A DNA stretch of 50,219 bases, from the sequence record MH917278; one strand, written 5' to 3'. Positions 1-48,816 of the stretch are shown in pieces. The notes below the pieces were generated by a model that had not been told where the DNA came from, made no database searches, and saw only the letters and a list, made by a program, of their open reading frames with translations. The stretch is from Shigella phage phi2457T. A program made the position numbers and the translations under genes. Numbering within the stretch: the first letter of the stretch is position 1; every line of letters begins with the position of its first letter.

Positions 1-101
1 GTTGCATGGTGTGCAACTGTTGATGTGATTTTTGCTTAGAATGCAATGATTGTGAGAGGGAGGATTTAGTGTTACCCGGTTCGCCTGGTGGTCATCTCCA
101 T

Positions 102-120
102 TTTTAGCAAAACGTGCTAT
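102..120 (-). promoter_or_regulatory. conserved intergenic element copy (reverse orientation), ATAGCAC-N5-TTGCTAAAA
   Basis: Plus strand reads ttttagcaaaacgtgctat, reverse complement ATAGCACGTTTTGCTAAAA; matches the consensus repeated throughout the window. Confidence 0.4.
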
Positions 121-206
121 CGATTACACTTTAACTTGTCACGACTGTAATATTTGTCTAGAATCGCACTTGTGACAAAATTACGCACTGTGACGCATCA
201 CAATAG

Positions 207-285
207 ACATATAGATATATGTATATATATAATATATATAGTGTTTTTTTTATTTATATATATAGATAATCATATTGTAATAGTT
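207..285. repeat. AT-rich tract with TATATAGATAAT motif (shared with 30996-31057)
   Basis: Near pure A/T run atatagatatatgtatatatataatatatata...atatatagataatcatattg in noncoding left end. Confidence 0.5.
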
Positions 286-436
286 GTGTATAGCCGTCTT
301 ACATTGTCTAGCGTACTGTTGGCATATTTCTACCTGCATGTTTATATATACAGTACTTTTTTGAGGGCTATATATTTCTATAGTGACTCTAGACAGCTAG
401 ACAAATATTACACGGCTTAAAATTGGCTTGCAGTCG

Positions 437-465
437 TTGACAGCTCTACGTCGCTCTGTCACAAT
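437..465 (+). promoter_or_regulatory. candidate sigma70-type promoter upstream of first ORF
   Basis: Perfect TTGACA at 437-442, 17-bp spacer, TGtCACAAT extended -10-like at 457-465; by eye only. Confidence 0.35.
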
Positions 466-523
466 GGCAATTGTTGACATGTTATGACACCATTTACACA
501 CCAATAGACAAAGAGGGCACATT

Positions 524-1039
524 ATGAGCAATACCAATCAGGAATTAAAAATCACCGATATGATTCGACTAACCTGCGATGTAATGTACCGCGACAAAGG
601 TATGACCGAGTTCTCTTTCGTTGCTGATGATATGGCCATCGAGGCCGCGCGATTCTACTTCCGGGGCCAGGAGGTAAGCGATGCCGATCTTGAATCTGCC
701 GCTGCCGGATGGGTGGACCAGAACCAGGGGGAGGTAGAGAAGAGATTCAAGTCCGCTTTCATTACTCCGATCATTACCCGGCACTTTTGCAAGTACGGCA
801 AGGTGGCAAAGGTGAAGGTGGGCCGGAATGACGCCGCAATCACAATGATAACCGTTATCGTTACAGACGAAGAGGTTCCGGTTAAGAAGCGCCGTAGCCG
901 GAAAAAAGTTAGCCTGGCAGACTGCCTGGATTCGTTTGATGTTGATGTTATCAAGCTATCCGATAGCGAGTTAATGGTTCGTGATGTGAATGAGATCGTG
1001 CGACAGATGAAAGCACATATTGAAAAGTGTGGACTGTAA
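524..1039 (+). CDS. hypothetical protein (171 aa)
   Basis: ORF track; ATG preceded by aagaggg SD; first ORF after noncoding leader. Confidence 0.5.
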   Translation: MSNTNQELKITDMIRLTCDVMYRDKGMTEFSFVADDMAIEAARFYFRGQEVSDADLESAAAGWVDQNQGEVEKRFKSAFITPIITRHFCKYGKVAKVKVGRNDAAITMITVIVTDEEVPVKKRRSRKKVSLADCLDSFDVDVIKLSDSELMVRDVNEIVRQMKAHIEKCGL

Positions 1040-1053
1040 CGCCGATAGGTGAA

Positions 1054-1071
1054 ATAGCACTTTTTGTTAAA
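1054..1071 (+). promoter_or_regulatory. conserved intergenic element copy
   Basis: atagcactttttgttaaa immediately after stop of 524..1039. Confidence 0.45.
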
Positions 1072-1129
1072 GCCCGGTCGAGCGGATCGGGTATTATCTT
1101 CTCATCGACACGATACAGAGGAATCGAAG

Positions 1130-1324
1130 ATGGAAACGCAAATTGACGTAGTGGTTGTTCAGCGCGACTCAACTCATGAAAAGGGTCTGTTCAAGAAAGG
1201 AACCGAAATCACGATCGACATTGAGGATATGGTTGCATATCACTCGGGCCTTACCTGGAACGTGGTGCGCGTAGGCAGCGACTACAAACTCAAAGGCTTT
1301 AACACTTACTTTGCAGAGGTTTAA
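1130..1324 (+). CDS. hypothetical protein (64 aa)
   Basis: Internal ATG of ORF 1064..1324 (METQIDVV) preceded by gaggaatcgaag SD; upstream part of the ORF overlaps the conserved element. Confidence 0.45.
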   Translation: METQIDVVVVQRDSTHEKGLFKKGTEITIDIEDMVAYHSGLTWNVVRVGSDYKLKGFNTYFAEV

Positions 1325-1326
1325 TC

Positions 1327-1797
1327 ATGGCGACAATTACCGTATTTCTTGCTAAAGATGAGATTGATGGCGAAATGTCATTCTTCGCGTTTGAGCACAA
1401 GACCGGATCGCACTGGCATATGTACAGCCACTACACGGTCATCGATATCAACTCATACCGCGCAAACTCACTTACTGAAAAGCTGGGTTGCTTCATTGGA
1501 GCTATCAAGGTGAACAATGGCTGCGAGTGGGCAGATGAGCACGAAGATCGCCGCATGTGCAATATGATTAACCCGGTCTATCTTGAGTCGTTCGATCTTG
1601 ATGCTGATGTGGCTATTAAGGTGAGAAAGTCGGGTGAGTTGTTGCCAGGGATGCGTGTGCTGACTGGTTACTCGGGCCGTAAGGTGTGGCGCACTGTATC
1701 CAAGATTCGCCAGCGTTCGGCAACATGCTATAGCGTGTTCTTTGATGACGGCTGGAATGAGGTTGCTGGTAGTAACGTGAAGTATCTTACCAAATAG
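1327..1797 (+). CDS. hypothetical protein (156 aa)
   Basis: ORF track; SD gagg upstream; stop codon TAG lies inside the conserved element at 1794. Confidence 0.5.
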   Translation: MATITVFLAKDEIDGEMSFFAFEHKTGSHWHMYSHYTVIDINSYRANSLTEKLGCFIGAIKVNNGCEWADEHEDRRMCNMINPVYLESFDLDADVAIKVRKSGELLPGMRVLTGYSGRKVWRTVSKIRQRSATCYSVFFDDGWNEVAGSNVKYLTK

Positions 1798-1813
1798 CAC
1801 GAATTGTTAAAAC
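1794..1813 (+). promoter_or_regulatory. conserved intergenic element copy
   Basis: atagcacgaattgttaaaac; followed by hairpin ggggta/tacccc with ctatagt in the loop, then leader catcaaaacgagatacc and SD. Confidence 0.5.
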
Positions 1814-1875
1814 AGGATCGGGGTATCTTGCTATAGTTACCCCATCAAAACGAGATACCAACCAGAGGATTCACC

Positions 1876-2106
1876 ATGTCAATCATCAAGAACCAACAAG
1901 CCATCGACTCGACCAGCCACAACTGCTTTGCTATTTTCATCACTCGCGACAACAAGCGATTTGCTGTCAGGGCGGTACCGGGTGGGTACAAAACATACAT
2001 GGAAAATAACGGAAAGTGGGTGCGCTGCGAAAACCTTGCAAACTTCTTGGTATGGAATGGCGAGTTTCAAGGTCGTGATGATATCAGCACTTTAATTGAG
2101 GAATAA
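1876..2106 (+). CDS. hypothetical protein (76 aa)
   Basis: ORF track; SD agagga 8 nt upstream. Confidence 0.5.
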   Translation: MSIIKNQQAIDSTSHNCFAIFITRDNKRFAVRAVPGGYKTYMENNGKWVRCENLANFLVWNGEFQGRDDISTLIEE

Positions 2107-2112
2107 ATAATC

Positions 2113-2340
2113 ATGCCACGTTACAGTAACCTAACCAAACTAGTCCGCGTAAACGGGCACATGATCCCGGCAAAATCTACTCACTGCGCGAAAGGCGCAA
2201 AGCACGGATTATATTTCAAGTGGCGCGGTCAATGGAACTTCACGGCGGTGAGTAATTTTTACATGCGCGTGCCTGGAGACGATCCGCAATCAGTAGTAGA
2301 AAACTCAATCGGTGACAACAAGATCGAGGTACTAAAATGA
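2113..2340 (+). CDS. hypothetical protein (75 aa)
   Basis: ORF track; SD gagga upstream. Confidence 0.45.
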   Translation: MPRYSNLTKLVRVNGHMIPAKSTHCAKGAKHGLYFKWRGQWNFTAVSNFYMRVPGDDPQSVVENSIGDNKIEVLK

Positions 2341-2443
2341 ACTTCAATACAATAGCTCTATGGTCTGCCGTCTGGTTCTTCTGCATGGGTCACGTCATGG
2401 TCGGTATCGTGGTAATGCTTCTCCTGTGTGCGGGAGCGTTCGA

Positions 2444-2617
2444 ATGATGCGCATTCTGATTTGCATGATGGCGGCGGTCGCCCTGGCTATCCTGGTAGTG
2501 TCCGGCTGTGGCGAGGTCAAAGAGCGATGCCATGAAACCGGGAACCAGGTTACTACTTTCGTGATGGTTGGCAACGTATTGCTACCAATCACATCAAATG
2601 AAATTACTTGCGAATAG
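2444..2617 (+). CDS. putative small lipoprotein (57 aa)
   Basis: Internal ATG of ORF 2360..2617 preceded by gggag; N-terminus MMRILICMMAAVALAILVVSGC has signal peptide plus lipobox-like LVVSGC. Confidence 0.35.
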   Translation: MMRILICMMAAVALAILVVSGCGEVKERCHETGNQVTTFVMVGNVLLPITSNEITCE

Positions 2618-2626
2618 GATTTAACA

Positions 2627-2818
2627 ATGGCTGATTTTATGCACCAAATGATTGCAGTATTCAAAGGTAGCGAAGATGAGGAAGTAAAGGAATGCTTTAC
2701 CTTCAACAAGTCTTATAGCGCGTCGCTAACCAGCTTCGGGAACATCTCATTGCTTGATGATAATGGCGACCCCTGGATATTCGACGAAGATACTGATTGC
2801 TTCGAAATTAAAGAATAG
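2627..2818 (+). CDS. hypothetical acidic protein (63 aa)
   Basis: ORF track; stop TAG lies in the conserved element at 2815. Confidence 0.45.
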   Translation: MADFMHQMIAVFKGSEDEEVKECFTFNKSYSASLTSFGNISLLDDNGDPWIFDEDTDCFEIKE

Positions 2819-2834
2819 CACTTTTTGTTAAAAC
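2815..2834 (+). promoter_or_regulatory. conserved intergenic element copy
   Basis: atagcactttttgttaaaac, hairpin ggggtt/aacccc with gatatagt in loop. Confidence 0.5.
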
Positions 2835-2888
2835 TCAATTCCGGGGTTGCGATATAGTAACCCCATCGATAACGAACGAGGATTTATC

Positions 2889-3095
2889 ATGAAACTGCGG
2901 TGCATTGAATCAAATCAAATTAACTACTCAGAAGGCTTCGAATATGTCGCTCAAATCGATAGCTTTACAAACAAAAGCGGAGAGGTTATTGATGTGGTTC
3001 ATGGAGTGTATACGTGGTTCTACTTTGACAAGAAAGCTCTAACAGCAACTAAGCGCAATGGCGATGTGGTGGCTAAATTTAAACGTGAACAATGA
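2889..3095 (+). CDS. hypothetical protein, member of small paralogous family (KC(I/V)...G.IY motif)
   Basis: Internal ATG (MKLRCIESNQ) with SD gagga; N-terminal motif shared with ORFs 3107, 4856, 8516, 42579, 46453. Confidence 0.45.
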   Translation: MKLRCIESNQINYSEGFEYVAQIDSFTNKSGEVIDVVHGVYTWFYFDKKALTATKRNGDVVAKFKREQ

Positions 3096-3106
3096 GGATT
3101 GAAATC

Positions 3107-3595
3107 ATGAAAATTAAATTACTTTGCACTGGCGGTTACAAGGGCTTTACTCGCGACCTGGAATCTGACCCTATTATCGTTGACGCCGTGAAGTGCAATG
3201 ATAGCATTGGCGGCTACCGCGTCAAAGTCGATGACCTGGTTAAAGCTGGCGTGTACGATCTCAATTGCGGCCTATCGGTTAGTCCGGTATTTGGCCCGGC
3301 TGACTTCAACGAGAAGGACGGAACTATGTTCTTTTTCGATTGGGAAGTGCGGGCAAACATCAAGCCTCGCAAGGTTCGACTTCTCAACAATGGCGGTTAT
3401 CCTATGCTACCAGGTTATGAGAATCGCACATTCCCGGTTATTGTTGACTTTGAAGAAATAACCACACACTTAGCTTATATCAACGGTGAACAGCTTCATG
3501 CTGTTGGATTCGTGGGAGGTATGAATCAAGAGGCGCTGTGCTTCTTCCATCGCGAATCAGAGCCGTTCGATATTGAGTGTGAGCTAGTCTACTAA
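3107..3595 (+). CDS. hypothetical protein (162 aa)
   Basis: ATG with SD gagga 8 nt upstream; N-terminus MKIKLLCTGGYKGF resembles the paralogous family. Confidence 0.5.
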   Translation: MKIKLLCTGGYKGFTRDLESDPIIVDAVKCNDSIGGYRVKVDDLVKAGVYDLNCGLSVSPVFGPADFNEKDGTMFFFDWEVRANIKPRKVRLLNNGGYPMLPGYENRTFPVIVDFEEITTHLAYINGEQLHAVGFVGGMNQEALCFFHRESEPFDIECELVY

Positions 3596-3611
3596 GCACG
3601 AATTGTTAAAA
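3594..3611 (+). promoter_or_regulatory. conserved intergenic element copy
   Basis: aagcacgaattgttaaaa, hairpin ggggatt/aatcccc. Confidence 0.45.
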
Positions 3612-3660
3612 GGGGATTCGTCCTGACTGGTACAATCCCCACATCGACCACCAAGAGGAA

Positions 3661-4152
3661 ATGATTATGTTGAAATTAAACGAGATTAAATTCCCTGTAG
3701 TTTTTAACACCATTAGCTGCGGTAAAATAACCTGCCACAGCAAAGATCGTGCAACTGATTCGTCATTCAATGAGTGTCACCCGTCGATTGTTGGTAATCT
3801 CATTGAGCTTCATAACAATCACAATCCTGATAACATCCCATCTCTTCCATATTATGTTGAGAGTGCCGGGCCTGGTTGGAAAGTTGGTCGGGCCATCTTT
3901 CATGAATCAAAGCCAGAAATCAAGCCATCGCTACAGTGCACTCAGATCGAGAATATGCCACTTAGCGCAACGCTAAAAGGTGTCCAGATTAGCAGCGATT
4001 CTTGGGTTGAGATTACCGCGACACCAAAAACTATTGAGGTGCACGACGATATCATCACGCTTCTATTGCATCACGGCGGCTTCAAGAACAAGACGGTATC
4101 AGGTGAAATCAGCATTAAGCGCGGAACGCTTGTCCGCTATGAGGTGAAATAA
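3661..4152 (+). CDS. hypothetical protein (163 aa)
   Basis: ORF track; SD aagagga upstream. Confidence 0.5.
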   Translation: MIMLKLNEIKFPVVFNTISCGKITCHSKDRATDSSFNECHPSIVGNLIELHNNHNPDNIPSLPYYVESAGPGWKVGRAIFHESKPEIKPSLQCTQIENMPLSATLKGVQISSDSWVEITATPKTIEVHDDIITLLLHHGGFKNKTVSGEISIKRGTLVRYEVK

Positions 4153-4301
4153 TGGCTGCATGGGTATTGATTATCTTGATGAGCACCGGGCCGGATCACG
4201 TATACATGGAAAGTCAGCAAGCATGTAACAAGGCTCGGGAAGTGATTGCAGAAAACAAGCCGTTCGGATACGAAGTAAAAACAATGTGTGTTAAACGATA
4301 G
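4152..4301 (+). CDS. putative small membrane protein (49 aa)
   Basis: ATG overlaps previous stop (ATAATGG); hydrophobic N-terminus MAAWVLIILMS; stop TAG is the TAG of the conserved element at 4298, as for neighbouring genes. Confidence 0.3.
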   Translation: MAAWVLIILMSTGPDHVYMESQQACNKAREVIAENKPFGYEVKTMCVKR

Positions 4302-4316
4302 CACGAATTGCTAAAC
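4298..4316 (+). promoter_or_regulatory. conserved intergenic element copy
   Basis: atagcacgaattgctaaac, hairpin aaggcca/tggcctt with gatatagt in loop. Confidence 0.5.
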
Positions 4317-4381
4317 CTTCCGCAAGGCCATTTGATATAGTGGCCTTATTGAAGCACGGCAACCAATCAGAGGAATCAGCT

Positions 4382-4588
4382 ATGGCTACACGACTCACGC
4401 AGTGGCAGATTTACGACAAGGCTTCACGCCTTCGTGAATCACTTCGAGGTCTGACACCGAACGATCGCATAGAAATCATCGGTCATGCATTGCACGAACT
4501 AACGCCGCATGACGTAACCTATCATTCTTGCGGCAATAAATTTTGGAACGTAACATTCGAGGTGAAGGAAGATGAGCAAAACTCATAA
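4382..4588 (+). CDS. hypothetical protein (68 aa)
   Basis: Internal ATG (MATRLTQ) preceded by conserved leader aaccaatcagaggaatcagct. Confidence 0.45.
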   Translation: MATRLTQWQIYDKASRLRESLRGLTPNDRIEIIGHALHELTPHDVTYHSCGNKFWNVTFEVKEDEQNS

Positions 4589-4859
4589 ATTAAAAATCGC
4601 CACGGTACATTTCATTGGGGTAATGAACGGAACAAAAACGGCAGAGTTCCGCATCAATGACCGCAACTTCCAGCCTGGAGATATCCTGGAGCTATGCGAG
4701 TTCGATCGTGACGAGTTTACCGGGTGGGAAGTTCACGCCAGGGTGTCCGATGTTACAGACGTGACGCCATACATCAATCGCGGGTATGACGATCAGGAAT
4801 GCGACTTCACGCAATACGTGATGTTATCAATCAAACCTTACAGGAAGGTTAGACCATGA
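4572..4859 (+). CDS. hypothetical protein (95 aa)
   Basis: ORF track; SD gaagga; overlaps neighbours by a few nt (translational coupling). Confidence 0.45.
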   Translation: MSKTHKLKIATVHFIGVMNGTKTAEFRINDRNFQPGDILELCEFDRDEFTGWEVHARVSDVTDVTPYINRGYDDQECDFTQYVMLSIKPYRKVRP

Positions 4860-5494
4860 AATTTGAATGCGTATCAAGTGACGGAACGGGATTTAAGTGG
4901 GGAAAAATCTACGAAGGCGCTCGCGTCAATAACGACAGCTTCGTTGTCGTGGATGAGCACGGTAGCAATGTGAACATCATCCGTCGTCACGAATACCAAG
5001 AAATTTTCCTGCCGTATGGCGGTAGTTCAAAATATATCTTCCATCGAATCGTGGATGGTGTTAAATTTAACGACGTAATCGAAGCAATCAACCAACTGCA
5101 TAATAAAGAGGTAAAATTTATGAAATTCGAATGTATCAGTGATAACACCAAAAAATTTACCGTCGGCAAAATTTACGACGTTCCCTCTGAGCACGCTAAG
5201 CACACGGCTGTAATTACCGACGACACGGGCCGCAACCGCATTGCAACCGTAACTCACAACGGCGAGGGTCTTCGCTGGAATAGCGGCGGCACTAAGTTTG
5301 CAACGTTCGGCAAGAAGCGCAAGCGCACTTTTTGCGTAAATGGCAAGGTTACAGCAAACAAGATCCACAACGTCAAGCCATCGGAAGTTGATCGTAAGCC
5401 AGCGACGAAGTTTGAAGAGAAAGCAGATTTGTCTGGTCTGGCTATCGCTCTTGTTCTCCTGGTCGCTTCTATTTCGCTGATGTTCATCATGTAA
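4856..5494 (+). CDS. membrane-anchored protein with internal tandem duplication of the paralogous small domain
   Basis: MKFECVSSDGTGFKWGKIYEG... repeated as MKFECISDNTKKFTVGKIYDV...; C-terminal hydrophobic segment LAIALVLLVASISLMFIM. Confidence 0.5.
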   Translation: MKFECVSSDGTGFKWGKIYEGARVNNDSFVVVDEHGSNVNIIRRHEYQEIFLPYGGSSKYIFHRIVDGVKFNDVIEAINQLHNKEVKFMKFECISDNTKKFTVGKIYDVPSEHAKHTAVITDDTGRNRIATVTHNGEGLRWNSGGTKFATFGKKRKRTFCVNGKVTANKIHNVKPSEVDRKPATKFEEKADLSGLAIALVLLVASISLMFIM

Positions 5495-5642
5495 TGTTAA
5501 CGGGGAATCGGCTCTGAACGGTTCCCCTTTCTTTTGGAGAAAATTCTATGCCAGACTTTGATAACTGGAAAAACGAGCCGCCATCATTTCAGGAGTTGCT
5601 ATTCTGCCTCCTGGTTCTGACAATATCTCTTAAGGGTGTTTT

Positions 5643-5861
5643 ATGGCTACTATCATGACAGCGGAAGATGCAGCGCGTGACGCAGTGGAAGGGATGCGCC
5701 CAAATACCTCCAGAATCGCACACTACTACAATTTTGACGTGTCGGCAGTGCAGCTGGTCCATGAAATTTTAAGGCTTCCACAAGTCGATTCAGCGCGACT
5801 GGTGACGTGCTTAAAAAATTATTTTTGCATCACTATTAAAACGAATAGCACGAATTGCTAA
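5643..5861 (+). CDS. hypothetical protein (72 aa)
   Basis: ORF track; weak SD; 3' end overlaps the conserved element. Confidence 0.35.
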   Translation: MATIMTAEDAARDAVEGMRPNTSRIAHYYNFDVSAVQLVHEILRLPQVDSARLVTCLKNYFCITIKTNSTNC

Positions 5862-5864
5862 AAC
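5845..5864 (+). promoter_or_regulatory. conserved intergenic element copy
   Basis: atagcacgaattgctaaaac, hairpin ggggaat/attcccc. Confidence 0.5.
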
Positions 5865-5918
5865 CTATCAAGGGGAATGCGCTATGATTCCCCTACACCA
5901 ACGAACGAGGGAACACTC

Positions 5919-6365
5919 ATGAAACATTTGATTTGCATTGATACACCTAACAATGAACACACCCTGCACGGCATTGGAATGTTCAAAGGCCACTACATGA
6001 CAGCAAGCATTTATGATGCGCATCGAGGCGATGGCGATCTAATGATTACTTCAAAAGAAGTTAATCCGTACATCATGCAGAATCTCGGGAACAATGAGTA
6101 TATGGCTTACGGCTGCAACGCGGTGTACAAGCATATCAAGATCCGCAAGCGCGTAGTTCGCGCATTCAAGAAGATTGCAATTAAATACTGGAAGATGAGC
6201 AAGAAGGACGCCGGAACATGGGCGCGTAACGTTGCTGATTCATACTTCTATCGTAACGGTGAGTCGTGCTACTTTTTGATCGATGATATTCATGACAATT
6301 ACGGCGGCTCATTCAGTCAGGAAGAGTTTGATAGCTGGGCTGAATACGAGATCAGTTGCTGGTAA
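5919..6365 (+). CDS. hypothetical protein (148 aa)
   Basis: Internal ATG (MKHLICID) after leader acgaacgagggaacactc. Confidence 0.5.
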   Translation: MKHLICIDTPNNEHTLHGIGMFKGHYMTASIYDAHRGDGDLMITSKEVNPYIMQNLGNNEYMAYGCNAVYKHIKIRKRVVRAFKKIAIKYWKMSKKDAGTWARNVADSYFYRNGESCYFLIDDIHDNYGGSFSQEEFDSWAEYEISCW

Positions 6366-6384
6366 TAGCACTAATTGCTAAAAC
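6365..6384 (+). promoter_or_regulatory. conserved intergenic element copy
   Basis: atagcactaattgctaaaac, hairpin aagggcat/atgccctt with gatagaa loop. Confidence 0.5.
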
Positions 6385-6448
6385 TTGCTCAAGGGCATTT
6401 GATAGAATGCCCTTCGTTGAGTTAAGCAACCAATCATAGGAATAAATC

Positions 6449-6982
6449 ATGGATAAAATTACCATTTGGGGTCAAACTATCAACCTGTTTCTCGGCACGC
6501 GACGCGTGGCAATCTTTGACTTTGACGGAACGCTTAGTGATGGATCAAAGCGCCTTCACCTGTTGCCGACAAAGGATTTGCACTTAACTGAAAGCTGGTC
6601 TGAGTTTAACCGAGCGGCAATATTTGATAACCCAATCCAGAGCACGATTGAGGTTATGAACTCTATGTTTGCTGCCGGGTATCACGTAATAGTTTTAACC
6701 GGGCGAAGTGATGAGGTTCGTTACGCATCTGAGTTATGGCTTAAGCATCACGGTGCGAGATATGATTACTTAGTCATGCGACCGCACACAGACAACAGGA
6801 AAGACACGGTGATGAAAGAAGAAGCGGTGCGAGCGATCGGTATTGAAAACATCCTGGCAGCTTGGGATGACTCACCGCAAATTATTCCATTATTCCGGTC
6901 GCTTGGAATAACAACATATGCGGTAGTTGACTATGGCGATAACATTCACGATCATTTAAAATCGCACGGGGTAGAGAAATGA
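6449..6982 (+). CDS. HAD-superfamily phosphatase-like protein
   Basis: Motif I FDFDGTL, motif II-like VLTGRS, motif IV-like WDDSP; resembles the phosphatase domain of polynucleotide kinase/phosphatase or a nucleotidase. Confidence 0.55.
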   Translation: MDKITIWGQTINLFLGTRRVAIFDFDGTLSDGSKRLHLLPTKDLHLTESWSEFNRAAIFDNPIQSTIEVMNSMFAAGYHVIVLTGRSDEVRYASELWLKHHGARYDYLVMRPHTDNRKDTVMKEEAVRAIGIENILAAWDDSPQIIPLFRSLGITTYAVVDYGDNIHDHLKSHGVEK

Positions 6983-7090
6983 ACCTATACGAATTTATTG
7001 CAGCACATCCGGTATTGACGGTTATCATCCTGCTAATCATCAATCACACCATCATCAATATGGCAAAATTATTTTTAGGGAGATACTAAC

Positions 7091-7663
7091 ATGAAAACAG
7101 CTATCATTTTAAACGGCGCTCCTGGAGCAGGCAAGGACACTATCGGATGCATCCTGGCTGACACTTACGATCATGTAGCTTTGCGCAGCTTCAAAGCACC
7201 AATGTTTGAGATTGCTCGGGCAATCCTGGGTGAGGCTAACTACGAGTATTTCATGTTCTTGTATGGGAACCGTATATACAAAGAAGAGCCAGATTCCATC
7301 CTGAACGGTAAAAGCCCGCGCCAGTTTATGATCTGGATTAGCGAGGAAGTCATTAAGCCACAGTTCGGAAATCGCTTCTTCGGCATGCGAGCGGAAAGCA
7401 AGGTCAAAGAATCAGACTCCCTTTCGGTATTTACTGATGGTGGATTCAAAGATGAGGTATTGCAGATGATTGAAGGTGATATCCAGGTCAAGCTATGCCG
7501 AATCCACCGCAAAGGCTGCAACTTTGACAACGACAGTCGTGATTATATTTACCTGGAAGATATGATCGGGGTTAATGGTTATCAGGAGTGTGATTTCTTC
7601 TCTGTCGAAGGTCATCCAGAAATTACCGCTCAGCACATAGCCGCTACGTTCATCAACAAATAG
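7091..7663 (+). CDS. P-loop nucleotide kinase (dNMP-kinase-like)
   Basis: Walker A GAPGAGKDT at N-terminus; size ~190 aa typical of small NMP/dNMP kinases. Confidence 0.5.
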   Translation: MKTAIILNGAPGAGKDTIGCILADTYDHVALRSFKAPMFEIARAILGEANYEYFMFLYGNRIYKEEPDSILNGKSPRQFMIWISEEVIKPQFGNRFFGMRAESKVKESDSLSVFTDGGFKDEVLQMIEGDIQVKLCRIHRKGCNFDNDSRDYIYLEDMIGVNGYQECDFFSVEGHPEITAQHIAATFINK

Positions 7664-7679
7664 CACGAATTGCTAAAAC
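7660..7679 (+). promoter_or_regulatory. conserved intergenic element copy
   Basis: atagcacgaattgctaaaac with downstream gatatagt. Confidence 0.5.
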
Positions 7680-7735
7680 GTCGGTGGGGTGATTTGATAT
7701 AGTTACCTCATCGACAACGAAGAGAGAAAATCGAA

Positions 7736-7945
7736 ATGATGGTATCAACTGATAAGTTTTTCACTTGCACTAAAACTTCTGAAGTATTCGAACTCGTTCA
7801 TACTGATAACGGTGATTTCATGCATGACGGTTGCGACGTTTTCATTGAAGTGAAAGAAAGCGACTATGATGACGGAGTTTATTACAACCCGGCAGTTAAC
7901 ACTCAGTTTTTTACACCGATCGAAGATGAAGGAGAAGAGGCATGA
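7736..7945 (+). CDS. small acidic protein (69 aa)
   Basis: ORF track; Asp/Glu-rich (DYDDGVYY, EDEGEEA). Confidence 0.4.
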   Translation: MMVSTDKFFTCTKTSEVFELVHTDNGDFMHDGCDVFIEVKESDYDDGVYYNPAVNTQFFTPIEDEGEEA

Positions 7946-8286
7946 TTACGATTAACCTATCAGAGAAGCAAGCTCGTGAAATCCTTGATGCGATCGGCGA
8001 CCAATTGCACGTAAAAGGAGCAACTGCCGAGTTGCTCAACCAGATCGAAAAGCAACTTACTCCTGTTTCAACGAATCAAGCTGAGTTTGCAGCCTGGAAG
8101 AGCGAGCGCATCCTGCCAAATATCATCAAGGCATGGAAGCGCAAGCATAAAAAAGAAATCAATGTTGATGACTTATTTTCTGATGAATTAAGTCCTTCAA
8201 AGGTTGCTCAATATCAGTTGCGATACATGGAATCAGTTTGCAATCAGGTCTTAAATGTCAACTTTTCATTCGGGAGTGGTAAATAA
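7942..8286 (+). CDS. hypothetical protein (114 aa)
   Basis: ORF track; ATGA start/stop overlap with upstream gene; SD gaagga. Confidence 0.45.
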   Translation: MITINLSEKQAREILDAIGDQLHVKGATAELLNQIEKQLTPVSTNQAEFAAWKSERILPNIIKAWKRKHKKEINVDDLFSDELSPSKVAQYQLRYMESVCNQVLNVNFSFGSGK

Positions 8287-8516
8287 TGTTTGGTTTAAGT
8301 GAAGCGGAATGGAACGTGGTAAAGCGCGCGGCGAAGGAATTGAATAAATTTGTTAGCGGAATGAAGAAGGAAGATCGCAAAAACGAAAAGATTATGATTG
8401 ATGTGATCTCAACTCATCACAAAAAGGTTGAGCTACTCATCGACCGCTACAAGTTTGTATGGACCGCCGGATATATTGCAGGGCGCGTAGGTAACAAAGA
8501 GGGTGATTACGAATAA
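8286..8516 (+). CDS. hypothetical protein (76 aa)
   Basis: ORF track; SD gggag; TAATG coupling. Confidence 0.4.
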   Translation: MFGLSEAEWNVVKRAAKELNKFVSGMKKEDRKNEKIMIDVISTHHKKVELLIDRYKFVWTAGYIAGRVGNKEGDYE

Positions 8517-8719
8517 TGGCTAACTTACCGAAGAAAGGCGATCAGGTTCGATGTGTTACATCACGCAATGGTGATGCTTTCTCAGCGGGATGCTTGTATG
8601 ACGTTGAAAAAGTAAGTAAAGCAAAGAGACTCGTATTTGTATACGGAGACGATGGAAATATTCATGAGATTGACTACCCGCAGGATATTACTAAGGGCCA
8701 ATTTGAAATTAATGATTGA
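8516..8719 (+). CDS. hypothetical protein, paralogous-family-like (67 aa)
   Basis: ORF track; VRCVTSRNGDAFSAGCLYDV resembles the KC(I/V)...G.IY motif. Confidence 0.4.
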   Translation: MANLPKKGDQVRCVTSRNGDAFSAGCLYDVEKVSKAKRLVFVYGDDGNIHEIDYPQDITKGQFEIND

Positions 8720-8883
8720 CCTGAATCTCTGAGCGGTGATAGTATTAATCCCGTAGACAGACGAGGCGCAAATAAGCGCAACGCGTGAGACGATTCTCAC
8801 ACTTCCAGCTAACAAGCTCGGTTGCATAGTGGTTAAGCAACGCCGCAGACCCGTAAGCGGCAACAATTCAAGAGGATTGCGTA

Positions 8884-9045
8884 ATGCAAAATATCAAAAA
8901 CGAATCAGTCAAAATCGAAATTAAAGTAACTCGCAACGGCAAAACAACTCGTTATAAAAAGCGGTTAAATCATGGAGAGGCTGTTATTGGTCGCATCGAT
9001 GGCGTTATGATTAAGGCGCAAGAAGATGAAGCGATTCAAAGTTAA
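8884..9045 (+). CDS. hypothetical small protein (53 aa)
   Basis: ATG with strong SD aagagga; below ORF-track length cutoff. Confidence 0.3.
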   Translation: MQNIKNESVKIEIKVTRNGKTTRYKKRLNHGEAVIGRIDGVMIKAQEDEAIQS

Positions 9046-9212
9046 ATTGATCATTCGAAAGATGGGGATGTTTTGCCAATCATGCAAACAATCTTTCGAG
9101 ACTGAATTATCGGCAACCAGTCAGGCAGAAGCCATCGCGAAAGCAAAAAAACTTTCCGGCGCAAACCTTGACACTCACAAAATAAACATTGAATTAATTA
9201 AGGAGATCTAAC

Positions 9213-9440
9213 ATGGAAATTTTTTTATGGATTATCGCTGGTATCGTTATTTTTGGTGCTGGTTTATTTTCTGGCTTCGCACTTGTGGCGGCAGCAATTG
9301 CGATGGACGCGAAGGATAAAACTGGTGTATGGCTTACCTACTCACCAAAGAAGGATCAATGGGAAATGACTGGCGATCTTGCTCACTGCTACTCTAAAGC
9401 TCAGACCCACCCTAAAGGCATTAAACGACGATTATCGTGA
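9213..9440 (+). CDS. small membrane protein (75 aa)
   Basis: SD aaggag; N-terminal hydrophobic segment IFLWIIAGIVIFGAGLFSGFALVAAAIA; followed by terminator. Confidence 0.5.
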   Translation: MEIFLWIIAGIVIFGAGLFSGFALVAAAIAMDAKDKTGVWLTYSPKKDQWEMTGDLAHCYSKAQTHPKGIKRRLS

Positions 9441-9448
9441 TAAATACT

Positions 9449-9471
9449 AACCCGCTACGGCGGGTTTTTTT
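9449..9471 (+). terminator. rho-independent terminator
   Basis: Hairpin cccgctacggcggg followed by TTTTTTT. Confidence 0.65.
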
Positions 9472-9490
9472 ATGCCTGCAATATGGTAAA

Positions 9491-9509
9491 ATAGCACTAA
9501 ATGTTAAAC
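9491..9509 (+). promoter_or_regulatory. conserved intergenic element copy upstream of terminase small subunit
   Basis: atagcactaaatgttaaac preceded by ctgcaatatgg -10-like. Confidence 0.45.
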
Positions 9510-9524
9510 AAAGAGGGTATATTT

Positions 9525-10049
9525 ATGAGTGAACCTAAGAACGCTCCCGTAGTTCAGGGTGGTAATTTCAAAGAGCTATACAAGAAAAAGTTCGGCACTG
9601 TTCTTGCGAAGAATCGGACCATGACGCCTGAGCAATTATTCGATCTATCAGTTAAGTATTTCGAATGGGCTGAGGACAATGCGATCAAGGCGTCTGAATC
9701 AGCCAGCTTTCAGGGTGGCGTGTACGAATCTCTTGTTCATAAGCCTCGGGTGTTCACCTGGACAGGGTATCGACTATTCATCGGTGCAAGTGAGGCCGCT
9801 ATCATTAAGTGGAAGCGAGAAGAGGAATATAGCGAGGTTATGGAGTTCGTGGAATCTGTAATCAACGAGCAAAAATTCCAACTTGCCGCCAACGGTGTTA
9901 TTAACGCCTCCTTTATCGGCAAGGATCTCGGGATCGATAAGCCAGCCTCAATCAATATCGAAAACTCAGCAGCTTCAGCATCTACCTCTGTTGCCACCAC
10001 TGAGGATGCAATGAAAGAGGCAGTGAACAGCATTCTTGACATGCTTTAA
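9525..10049 (+). CDS. terminase small subunit (putative)
   Basis: Position immediately upstream of terminase large subunit; ~175 aa; SD aaagaggg; identity by synteny only. Confidence 0.5.
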   Translation: MSEPKNAPVVQGGNFKELYKKKFGTVLAKNRTMTPEQLFDLSVKYFEWAEDNAIKASESASFQGGVYESLVHKPRVFTWTGYRLFIGASEAAIIKWKREEEYSEVMEFVESVINEQKFQLAANGVINASFIGKDLGIDKPASINIENSAASASTSVATTEDAMKEAVNSILDML

Positions 10050-35443: not shown

Positions 35444-35462
35444 ATAGCACGAATTGCTAAAC
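35444..35462 (+). promoter_or_regulatory. conserved intergenic element copy within an extended inverted repeat
   Basis: atagcacgaattgctaaac followed 27 nt later by inverted half gtgctat; lies between two minus-strand genes. Confidence 0.4.
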
Positions 35463-48797: not shown

Positions 48798-48816
48798 TTT
48801 AGCAATTCGTGCTATT
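48798..48816 (-). promoter_or_regulatory. conserved intergenic element copy (minus orientation)
   Basis: Plus strand tttagcaattcgtgctatt; hairpin ccccgagcgagatcgggg downstream on minus strand; contains stop of upstream gene. Confidence 0.5.

Follow-up and report, generated by a model that had tools for sequence, protein, structure and literature searches.

Micro-ORFs in the left arm of Shigella phage phi2457T are probably genuine accessory genes of T1-like phages

We studied three very short open reading frames (ORFs), at 2337..2447, 4152..4301 and 6979..7089 in the sequence record MH917278 of Shigella phage phi2457T. The window, i.e., the whole stretch of 50,219 nucleotides that was analysed, is the complete 50.2-kb genome of a T1-like phage (Drexlerviridae, Tunavirinae, genus Tunavirus), and the three micro-ORFs sit in its left-arm block of many small genes, all on the + strand. 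They are very probably genuine protein-coding accessory genes, two encoding membrane peptides and one a soluble protein, and their products are probable binders of host proteins. The block holds two further genes of the same class, at 2444..2617 and 5548..5658. An earlier sequence-only reading had listed the three ORFs as unannotated, with hydrophobic cores and signatures of translational coupling; all three are present in the window with the translations given there. The label "early" that it attached to the block derives from map position only.

The evidence that carries this conclusion is conservation. A 5.3-kb query across the region matched 255 phage records, the best of which were Shigella phages Sfin-6, Sfin-4, Sfin-1 and Sfin-2 (97% identity over 96% of the query). 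The comparison set consisted of 72 loci around homologs of the polynucleotide kinase (56–99% identity) from the public viral-contig collection IMG/VR and three loci from GenBank, to which the T1 record was subsequently added. Depending on the ORF, 14 or 15 relatives carried a complete ungapped copy at 86–99% nucleotide identity, with start and stop kept, and no indel was found in any of these complete copies. As a guard against inflation by shared ancestry, each distinct allele was counted once per alignment column, and binomial p values were computed against the roughly 20–23% of synonymous changes expected under neutrality.

In 2337..2447, changes at the first, second and third codon positions numbered 10, 3 and 31, with 30 synonymous and 14 non-synonymous changes (ratio of non-synonymous to synonymous substitution rates, dN/dS, about 0.13; p = 7e-11). 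The corresponding values were 9, 5 and 35 for 4152..4301 (34 synonymous, 15 non-synonymous; dN/dS about 0.11; p = 1e-13) and 7, 2 and 16 for 6979..7089 (18 synonymous, 7 non-synonymous; dN/dS about 0.12; p = 3e-7). None of the other five frames of the three ORFs combined this pattern with staying open: most gave ratios near or above 1, and one antisense frame that shares third positions gave a lower ratio but holds stop codons. Eight accepted neighbour genes, assessed by the same measure, ranged from 0.00 to 0.21; seven of them lay between 0.04 and 0.21, and the value of 0.00 came from two distinct sequences with only four changes. Purifying selection on the three micro-ORFs matches that on these accepted genes. 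An open frame of 36 codons alone is not improbable by chance, and it is because of conservation, not frame length, that the three ORFs stand beyond it. Conservation of the reading frames in relatives was also the check that the sequence-only reading had named beforehand. Two relatives behaved differently: JMPW1 has a premature stop in 4152..4301 (see below), and vB_SsoS_008 has frameshifts in nearly every small gene examined, and a locus disrupted throughout in this way suggests poor sequence quality.

The signals around the frames fit the same picture. Each micro-ORF fills a gap between its neighbours on the coding strand and has its own Shine-Dalgarno-like motif 5–7 nucleotides 5′ of the start, which is kept in relatives although it lies inside upstream coding sequence. 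The three starts overlap or abut upstream stop codons (ATGA, TAATG and ATGA), and 2444..2617 likewise begins on or beside such a stop. The coupling signatures described earlier thus hold in the window and persist in relatives; coupling itself is a prediction from these overlaps and the conserved Shine-Dalgarno motifs.

The peptide of 2337..2447 (MNFNTIALWSAVWFFCMGHVMVGIVVMLLLCAGAFE) has 36 residues and is predicted to cross the membrane once. It is the ortholog of T1 Orf73 (CPTT1_005, AAP49927.1), which is also 36 residues long, is 86% identical, lies in the same place between the Orf74 and Orf72 homologs and has the same ATGA overlaps and the same predicted single transmembrane helix; we see no meaningful difference between the two. 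The profile of the family, phrog_25570, matched at E = 3.4e-27, with residues 1–36 on profile positions 1–36 of 36. As the sequence-only reading had noted, the gene has an ATGA at both ends: its ATG overlaps the TGA of an upstream 75-amino-acid gene, and its own TGA overlaps the ATG of a downstream 57-amino-acid gene. The GAGG motif at 2326..2329 (+ strand) lies inside the upstream gene, 7 nucleotides 5′ of the ATG; GAGGT is invariant in 14 of 14 distinct relatives, and the T1 record marks a ribosome-binding site at the equivalent position.

We counted as a membrane span at least about 19 hydrophobic residues with a mean Kyte-Doolittle value above 1.6. By this measure 2337..2447, 6979..7089 and 5548..5658 have a span and 4152..4301 has none. 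In 2337..2447, a run of 31 residues lacks charged or amide side chains, the best 19-residue mean is 2.46, and AlphaFold2, given the single sequence, returned one continuous helix over residues 3–35 (33 residues; predicted local distance difference test, pLDDT, 92.7). The gene was found by tblastn in 55 GenBank phage records, all of Escherichia or Shigella Tunavirus phages. Local hidden Markov model searches of 75 loci and tblastn additionally revealed remote homologs with 29–44% identity in other Drexlerviridae, namely IME347 and TLS-like phages of Salmonella, Escherichia and Citrobacter (e.g., YSP2, U136B and Stevie). There, too, an ATGA overlap joins the gene to the one upstream, but the genes around it are unrelated. 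Across the family A7, A11, G33 and F35 are invariant, the residue after F35 is always Asp or Glu, and a central Gly-His occurs in 6 of 7 sequences, three of which read G-H-P-G. The remote members begin with Met-Lys and end with Asp or Glu. Because of these terminal charges and the prediction in the T1 record, which notes one transmembrane domain in N-in/C-out orientation, we infer that the peptide is inserted in the inner membrane with its N-terminus inside.

The second membrane peptide, encoded by 6979..7089 (MNLYEFIAAHPVLTVIILLIINHTIINMAKLFLGRY), is also predicted to be a single-pass protein of 36 residues and lies between the polynucleotide kinase and deoxynucleoside monophosphate (dNMP) kinase genes. 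Its hydrophobic core, FIAAHPVLTVIILLII, has a best 19-residue Kyte-Doolittle mean of 2.22, and Glu5 as against Lys29 and Arg35 suggests an N-out/C-in topology. The ATGA reported earlier is indeed found at the start, where it overlaps the kinase stop; at the other end there is no overlap, the stop being separated by a single base from the dNMP kinase ATG (TAAcATG). A GGGG motif at 6968..6971 (+ strand) serves as the Shine-Dalgarno-like sequence. Five relatives have a different kinase 3′ end, and there AAGGAG (in four) or AATGAG (in one) stands at the same distance, with a GTG start in 4 of 5. The start/stop overlap, GTGA or ATGA, is therefore kept in both upstream sequence contexts. In some relatives another ORF, in the +2 frame, runs across the spacer between the two kinase genes; we rejected it as a gene in view of its dN/dS of about 6 and its absence from the window.

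The 52 phage records with 6979..7089 all belong to Escherichia or Shigella phages of the genus Tunavirus, each at 90% identity or above; PHROG and Pfam searches gave no family, and no remote homolog turned up outside this one genus. The sequence of the peptide is identical to Sfin3_0009 (YP_009902237.1), and bas13_0075 of phage LeonhardEuler is an ortholog with more than 90% identity and a GTG start. In T1 (locus L076, 5465-5959), JMPW2 (L075) and a third relative (L015), the slot holds an HNH homing endonuclease instead, so the intergenic site shows either/or occupancy by the peptide gene or the endonuclease. In the relatives infecting Klebsiella, the polynucleotide kinase and dNMP kinase genes overlap directly and the peptide gene is absent. 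Because T1 has the HNH endonuclease in its place, 6979..7089 is dispensable.

The third micro-ORF, 4152..4301, differs from the other two in kind. It encodes 49 amino acids and is the ortholog of T1 Orf69 (CPTT1_009, AAP49931.1), which has the same length, is 94% identical, occupies the same place after the Orf70 homolog, likewise ends in a repeat element and shows no difference that we could name. The family profile, phrog_5579, aligned residues 1–49 with positions 1–52 of 52 (E = 1e-25). The GAGGTG motif at 4141..4146 (+ strand), 5 nucleotides 5′ of the ATG, is conserved apart from one relative with GGGGTG; the start overlaps the last base of the upstream TAA, and the stop, TAG at 4299-4301, is the first triplet of the repeat element TAGCACGAATTGCTAAA, as had been noticed from the sequence. 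The gene was present in 93 phage records by tblastn, 37 of them below 60% identity and in other Drexlerviridae genera, and a profile search of a large protein database gave 27 clusters at 90% identity for the family. At several distant loci that we examined, the homolog lies directly 3′ of the polynucleotide kinase gene.

In an alignment of 26 Orf69-family members L6 is invariant, and at least 90% of the members share W4, C25, A28, R29 and C46. The AlphaFold2 model built from this alignment (mean pLDDT 88.5) has strands at 4–10, 13–19 and 43–48 and a helix at 22–35. No uncharged run exceeds 14 residues, and with 1.15 the best 19-residue Kyte-Doolittle mean stays under the usual threshold of 1.6. 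The high-confidence prediction for the product is a small globular protein of strand-strand-helix-strand fold that does not span the membrane, so that its hydrophobic N-terminus would be strand 1 of the model. The claim that all three ORFs encode hydrophobic membrane proteins can thus be kept for 2337..2447 and 6979..7089 and has to be dropped for 4152..4301, which should be left out of membrane-protein counts. Foldseek matched the model to many small uncharacterised phage proteins in BFVD, a database of predicted viral protein structures. What our analysis adds for the Orf69 family is the frequent site directly after the polynucleotide kinase gene in other Drexlerviridae genera and the predicted fold. 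In JMPW1 (L010, 3704-3853), the gene has a premature stop at codon 25, to be explained by a natural knockout or else by a sequencing error.

Several other explanations of these ORFs have to be weighed. Chance open frames in short non-coding spacers, conserved for the sake of DNA or RNA signals, have some points in their favour: 36 open codons are not rare, a hydrophobic look is common in T-rich frames, real genes contain several spurious ORFs of hydrophobic character, and neither 6979..7089 nor 5548..5658 belongs to a PHROG family. Such frames would not be expected to collect mainly third-position, mostly synonymous changes in exactly the proposed frame (dN/dS 0.11–0.13, p at most 3e-7), nor to keep start, Shine-Dalgarno motif and stop position free of indels in every complete relative. 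Moreover, an Rfam search of positions 1..10000 found no RNA family, and divergent homologs at 25–49% identity retain the frame for two of the three ORFs, which makes this explanation extremely improbable. It is also improbable, if slightly less so, that the two membrane peptides time lysis or form pores, in the manner of a holin, antiholin or viroporin, and do not bind host proteins. They are indeed very small single-helix membrane peptides, and most members of the 2337..2447 family have a His near mid-helix. No lysis-category PHROG matched them at E ≤ 0.1, however; their genes stand in the left-arm accessory block and not beside lysis genes, T1-like phages have their holin, endolysin and unimolecular spanin in a separate cluster (PMC11447400), and one of the two, 6979..7089, is dispensable in T1.

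Two further alternatives concern single genes, and we consider both unlikely. The 4152..4301 product might be an envelope protein, with AAWVLIILM as an uncleaved signal or anchor and its two conserved cysteines, C25 and C46, in a periplasmic disulfide; a hydrophobic N-terminus is found in all family members, and several small neighbour genes are envelope-targeted. The short uncharged run and low hydropathy mean given above speak against an anchor, as do a summed Hessa insertion free energy of +7.9 for the N-terminal segment, which is unfavourable, the lack of a positively charged n-region and the Ser, Tyr and Gly that distant homologs show there in an alternating, strand-like pattern. AlphaFold2 confidently makes the same stretch the first strand of a three-stranded sheet, and the authors of the T1 record put transmembrane notes on the neighbours of Orf69 and none on Orf69 itself. 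As for 6979..7089, it might be a translated spacer that acts as a relay, passing ribosomes of the polynucleotide kinase gene on to the dNMP kinase gene, its peptide being functionless and the gene possibly young or de novo. The restriction to a subset of one genus at 90% identity or above, the lack of remote homologs, the dispensability seen in T1 and in the Klebsiella-phage relatives, the tightly coupled start and the end one base before the next ATG would all agree with a relay. The peptide sequence is nevertheless constrained, its 18 synonymous and 7 non-synonymous changes comparing with about 23% synonymous expected, and length and hydrophobic core are invariant, although a pure relay would tolerate non-synonymous changes and in-frame indels.

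We therefore return to the reading of the micro-ORFs as accessory protein-coding genes, and some points do weigh against it. Our searches of the literature found no direct evidence of translation by ribosome profiling or proteomics. Likewise, searches for transcriptomics, ribosome profiling and gene essentiality in T1 and Drexlerviridae found nothing relevant, the one Drexlerviridae match with RNA-seq being for a T5-like phage only. The 25 informative substitutions of 6979..7089 are few, and this gene has no homolog outside its genus. The topologies of both membrane peptides come from charge distribution only, and 2337..2447 contains neither Lys nor Arg; its helix model was built from a single sequence, and the central G-H-P-G of the remote homologs, if it forms a turn, could make a re-entrant hairpin.

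The three micro-ORFs are accessory, individually dispensable and shuffled as small modules. This follows from the replacement of 6979..7089 by the HNH endonuclease, the stop within 4152..4301 in JMPW1 and the differing neighbours in other genera. We propose that the micro-ORFs would be translated from polycistronic transcripts by re-initiation or coupling from the upstream gene, and that the two hydrophobic peptides would insert into the inner membrane. The products would be non-essential, stoichiometric binders of host proteins, the membrane peptides acting through helix-helix packing, for which 2337..2447 offers as candidate features the invariant small-xxx-small motif A7xxxA11 and the mostly conserved mid-helix Gly-His, and the soluble 4152..4301 protein through an exposed hydrophobic face of its sheet. 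The purpose may be host takeover, superinfection exclusion or counter-defence. We name no specific target, since no homology supports one.

A narrower idea, which we put forward with considerable doubt, is that 2337..2447 is a dedicated inhibitor or gate of a host inner-membrane machine, i.e., a minimal 36-residue transmembrane anti-host factor. It is prompted by the occurrence of the family in several Drexlerviridae genera, the A7xxxA11 motif, the mid-membrane Gly-His in most members and the acidic, putatively periplasmic tip; the machine could be a component of phage DNA entry (superinfection exclusion) or a membrane-bound defence effector. If this were true, the other micro-peptides of the block would form an envelope-directed effector toolkit shuffled among T1-like phages. 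Should this cross-genus peptide of the Orf73 family prove to have a target, it would be one more example of a minimal phage effector that spans the membrane. The finding itself is an ordinary one, as these genes conform to what is usual in the plastic regions of lytic phage genomes, where accessory genes are small and shuffled.

In public records, the three ORFs are already known as hypothetical genes and are not new, so the description "unannotated" was mistaken. T1 Orf73 and Orf69 have been annotated since 2004, and both Sfin-4 and LeonhardEuler, a coliphage of the BASEL collection, annotate all three. NCBI/UniProt has entries for hypothetical proteins identical to the peptides of 2337..2447 and 6979..7089, e.g., bas13_0062 and Sfin3_0009/YP_009902237.1. 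The absence of the three ORFs from the ORF track used by the sequence-only reading is real and reflects a length cut-off of about 60 amino acids. The accompanying remark that small genes are often missed agrees with what we saw: Chapo annotates the 49-amino-acid gene only, RefSeq SH2 omits 2337..2447, and 6979..7089 is left out of many records, including several RefSeq re-annotations. We sampled 25 of the 52 records with 6979..7089, spread over the set; 22 of them were annotated, and about 14 of these 22 list only the overlapping kinase gene and have no coding sequence feature for the peptide. Because 36-codon genes are annotated so inconsistently, comparative pipelines with a length cut-off lose them.

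The gene at 2444..2617 (+ strand), absent from the earlier list but of the same sub-60-residue class, encodes a lipoprotein-like product of 57 amino acids. It corresponds to T1 Orf72 and phrog_8628 (E = 3.2e-29), has a dN/dS of about 0.13 and overlaps the stop of 2337..2447, an overlap that makes it apparently translationally coupled. The N-terminus fits a signal peptide ending in the lipobox consensus [LVI][ASTVI][GAS]C (...ILVVSG|C22, with Gly at +2), from which lipidation is predicted, and UniRef names the protein "Lipoprotein". The consensus is lost in two relatives, which have VSVC and VSGF. Remote homologs at three loci (L055, L062 and L066) keep the Cys-rich C-terminal domain and have an N-terminal transmembrane anchor instead. 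We considered that the lipoprotein and 2337..2447 form an obligate pair and rejected it: one relative (L012) has the peptide without the lipoprotein, and remote homologs of each were found alone.

The other additional gene, 5548..5658 (+ strand; MPDFDNWKNEPPSFQELLFCLLVLTISLKGVLWLLS), likewise absent from the earlier list, encodes a further predicted membrane peptide of 36 residues and is the ortholog of T1 Orf67 (CPTT1_011), for which the T1 record notes one predicted transmembrane domain, N-out/C-in. Its dN/dS is about 0.20 and its best 19-residue Kyte-Doolittle mean 2.41. It starts just 3′ of a terminator-like hairpin at 5502-5527 and overlaps the next gene by 16 nucleotides. No PHROG family matched it; weak matches in other Drexlerviridae genera (E 0.005–0.2) have a [KR]G[VIA]LW motif in common. 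In general, Pfam, NCBIfam and PDB sequence searches of the small proteins gave nothing above threshold.

Nearby, the 212-amino-acid ORF at 4856-5494 (+ strand) has the appearance of two paralogous modules fused in frame, each of which begins with MKFEC..GKIY; they are 38% identical over 39 residues (E = 2e-6). There is an internal Shine-Dalgarno motif with an ATG at 5120, and a hydrophobic tail anchor is present at the C-terminus. In the T1 and Chapo records this gene is annotated in shorter form.

The left end of the window, at 130-470, contains near-consensus sigma-70 matches (TAGACA-18-TATAAT, TTGTCA-17-TAGAAT and TTGACA-17-CACAAT) in an AT-rich TATATA tract 5′ of the first gene. These putative promoters are likely the entry promoters for the small-gene block.

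The repeat element in which 4152..4301 ends (TAGCACGAATTGCTAAA, copy at 4299..4315, + strand) is one of 22 copies of a 17-nucleotide sequence, TAGCACNAATTGYTAAA, in the window, as compared with 0.08 expected (two mismatches or fewer). Examples are found at 1795-1811, 2816-2832, 4299-4315, 5846-5862, 6366-6382, 7661-7677, 35445-35461 and 48798-48814 (- strand), and in many cases the TAG of the element terminates the gene upstream. The element matches a 21-nucleotide direct repeat, aaATAGCACnnnTTGnTAAAA, for which phage TLS was reported to have 21 sites and whose role was left open as a stoperator, an enhancer site or an UP element (PMC11447400). The copies read by eye within 1–8 kb are followed by a hairpin of variable sequence with a TATAGT-like -10 box, often TGnTATAGT. 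Because the spacing from TTGCTA to TATAGT is 22 nucleotides, not 17, in the two copies counted, the element and this box are not a standard -35/-10 promoter.

Among known systems, T5 Llp and phi80/N15 Cor are receptor-blocking phage lipoproteins, and T1 itself uses FhuA as its receptor. The 2444..2617 product is likewise a small phage lipoprotein by prediction; unlike Llp and Cor, it matched no named family in PHROG, Pfam or NCBIfam, and its gene is not beside receptor-binding genes. Bacillus phage SPO1 Gp56 and T4 Imm are small membrane proteins with host membrane targets, and the E. coli regulators MgrB and AcrZ are bacterial small membrane proteins. Gp11 of Staphylococcus phage PhiNM1, a small membrane protein which came from a screen of early genes, binds MurG and DivIC (PMC11237401), and small phage proteins in general are today acknowledged to be abundant effectors (PMC11323111). 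Our micro-ORF peptides have no sequence or structural homology to PhiNM1 Gp11 and the other examples, and the analogy would be a functional one only. Like those proteins, the two peptides are small and, by prediction, membrane-anchored, and the mode of action that we propose for them, stoichiometric binding within the membrane, is the same.

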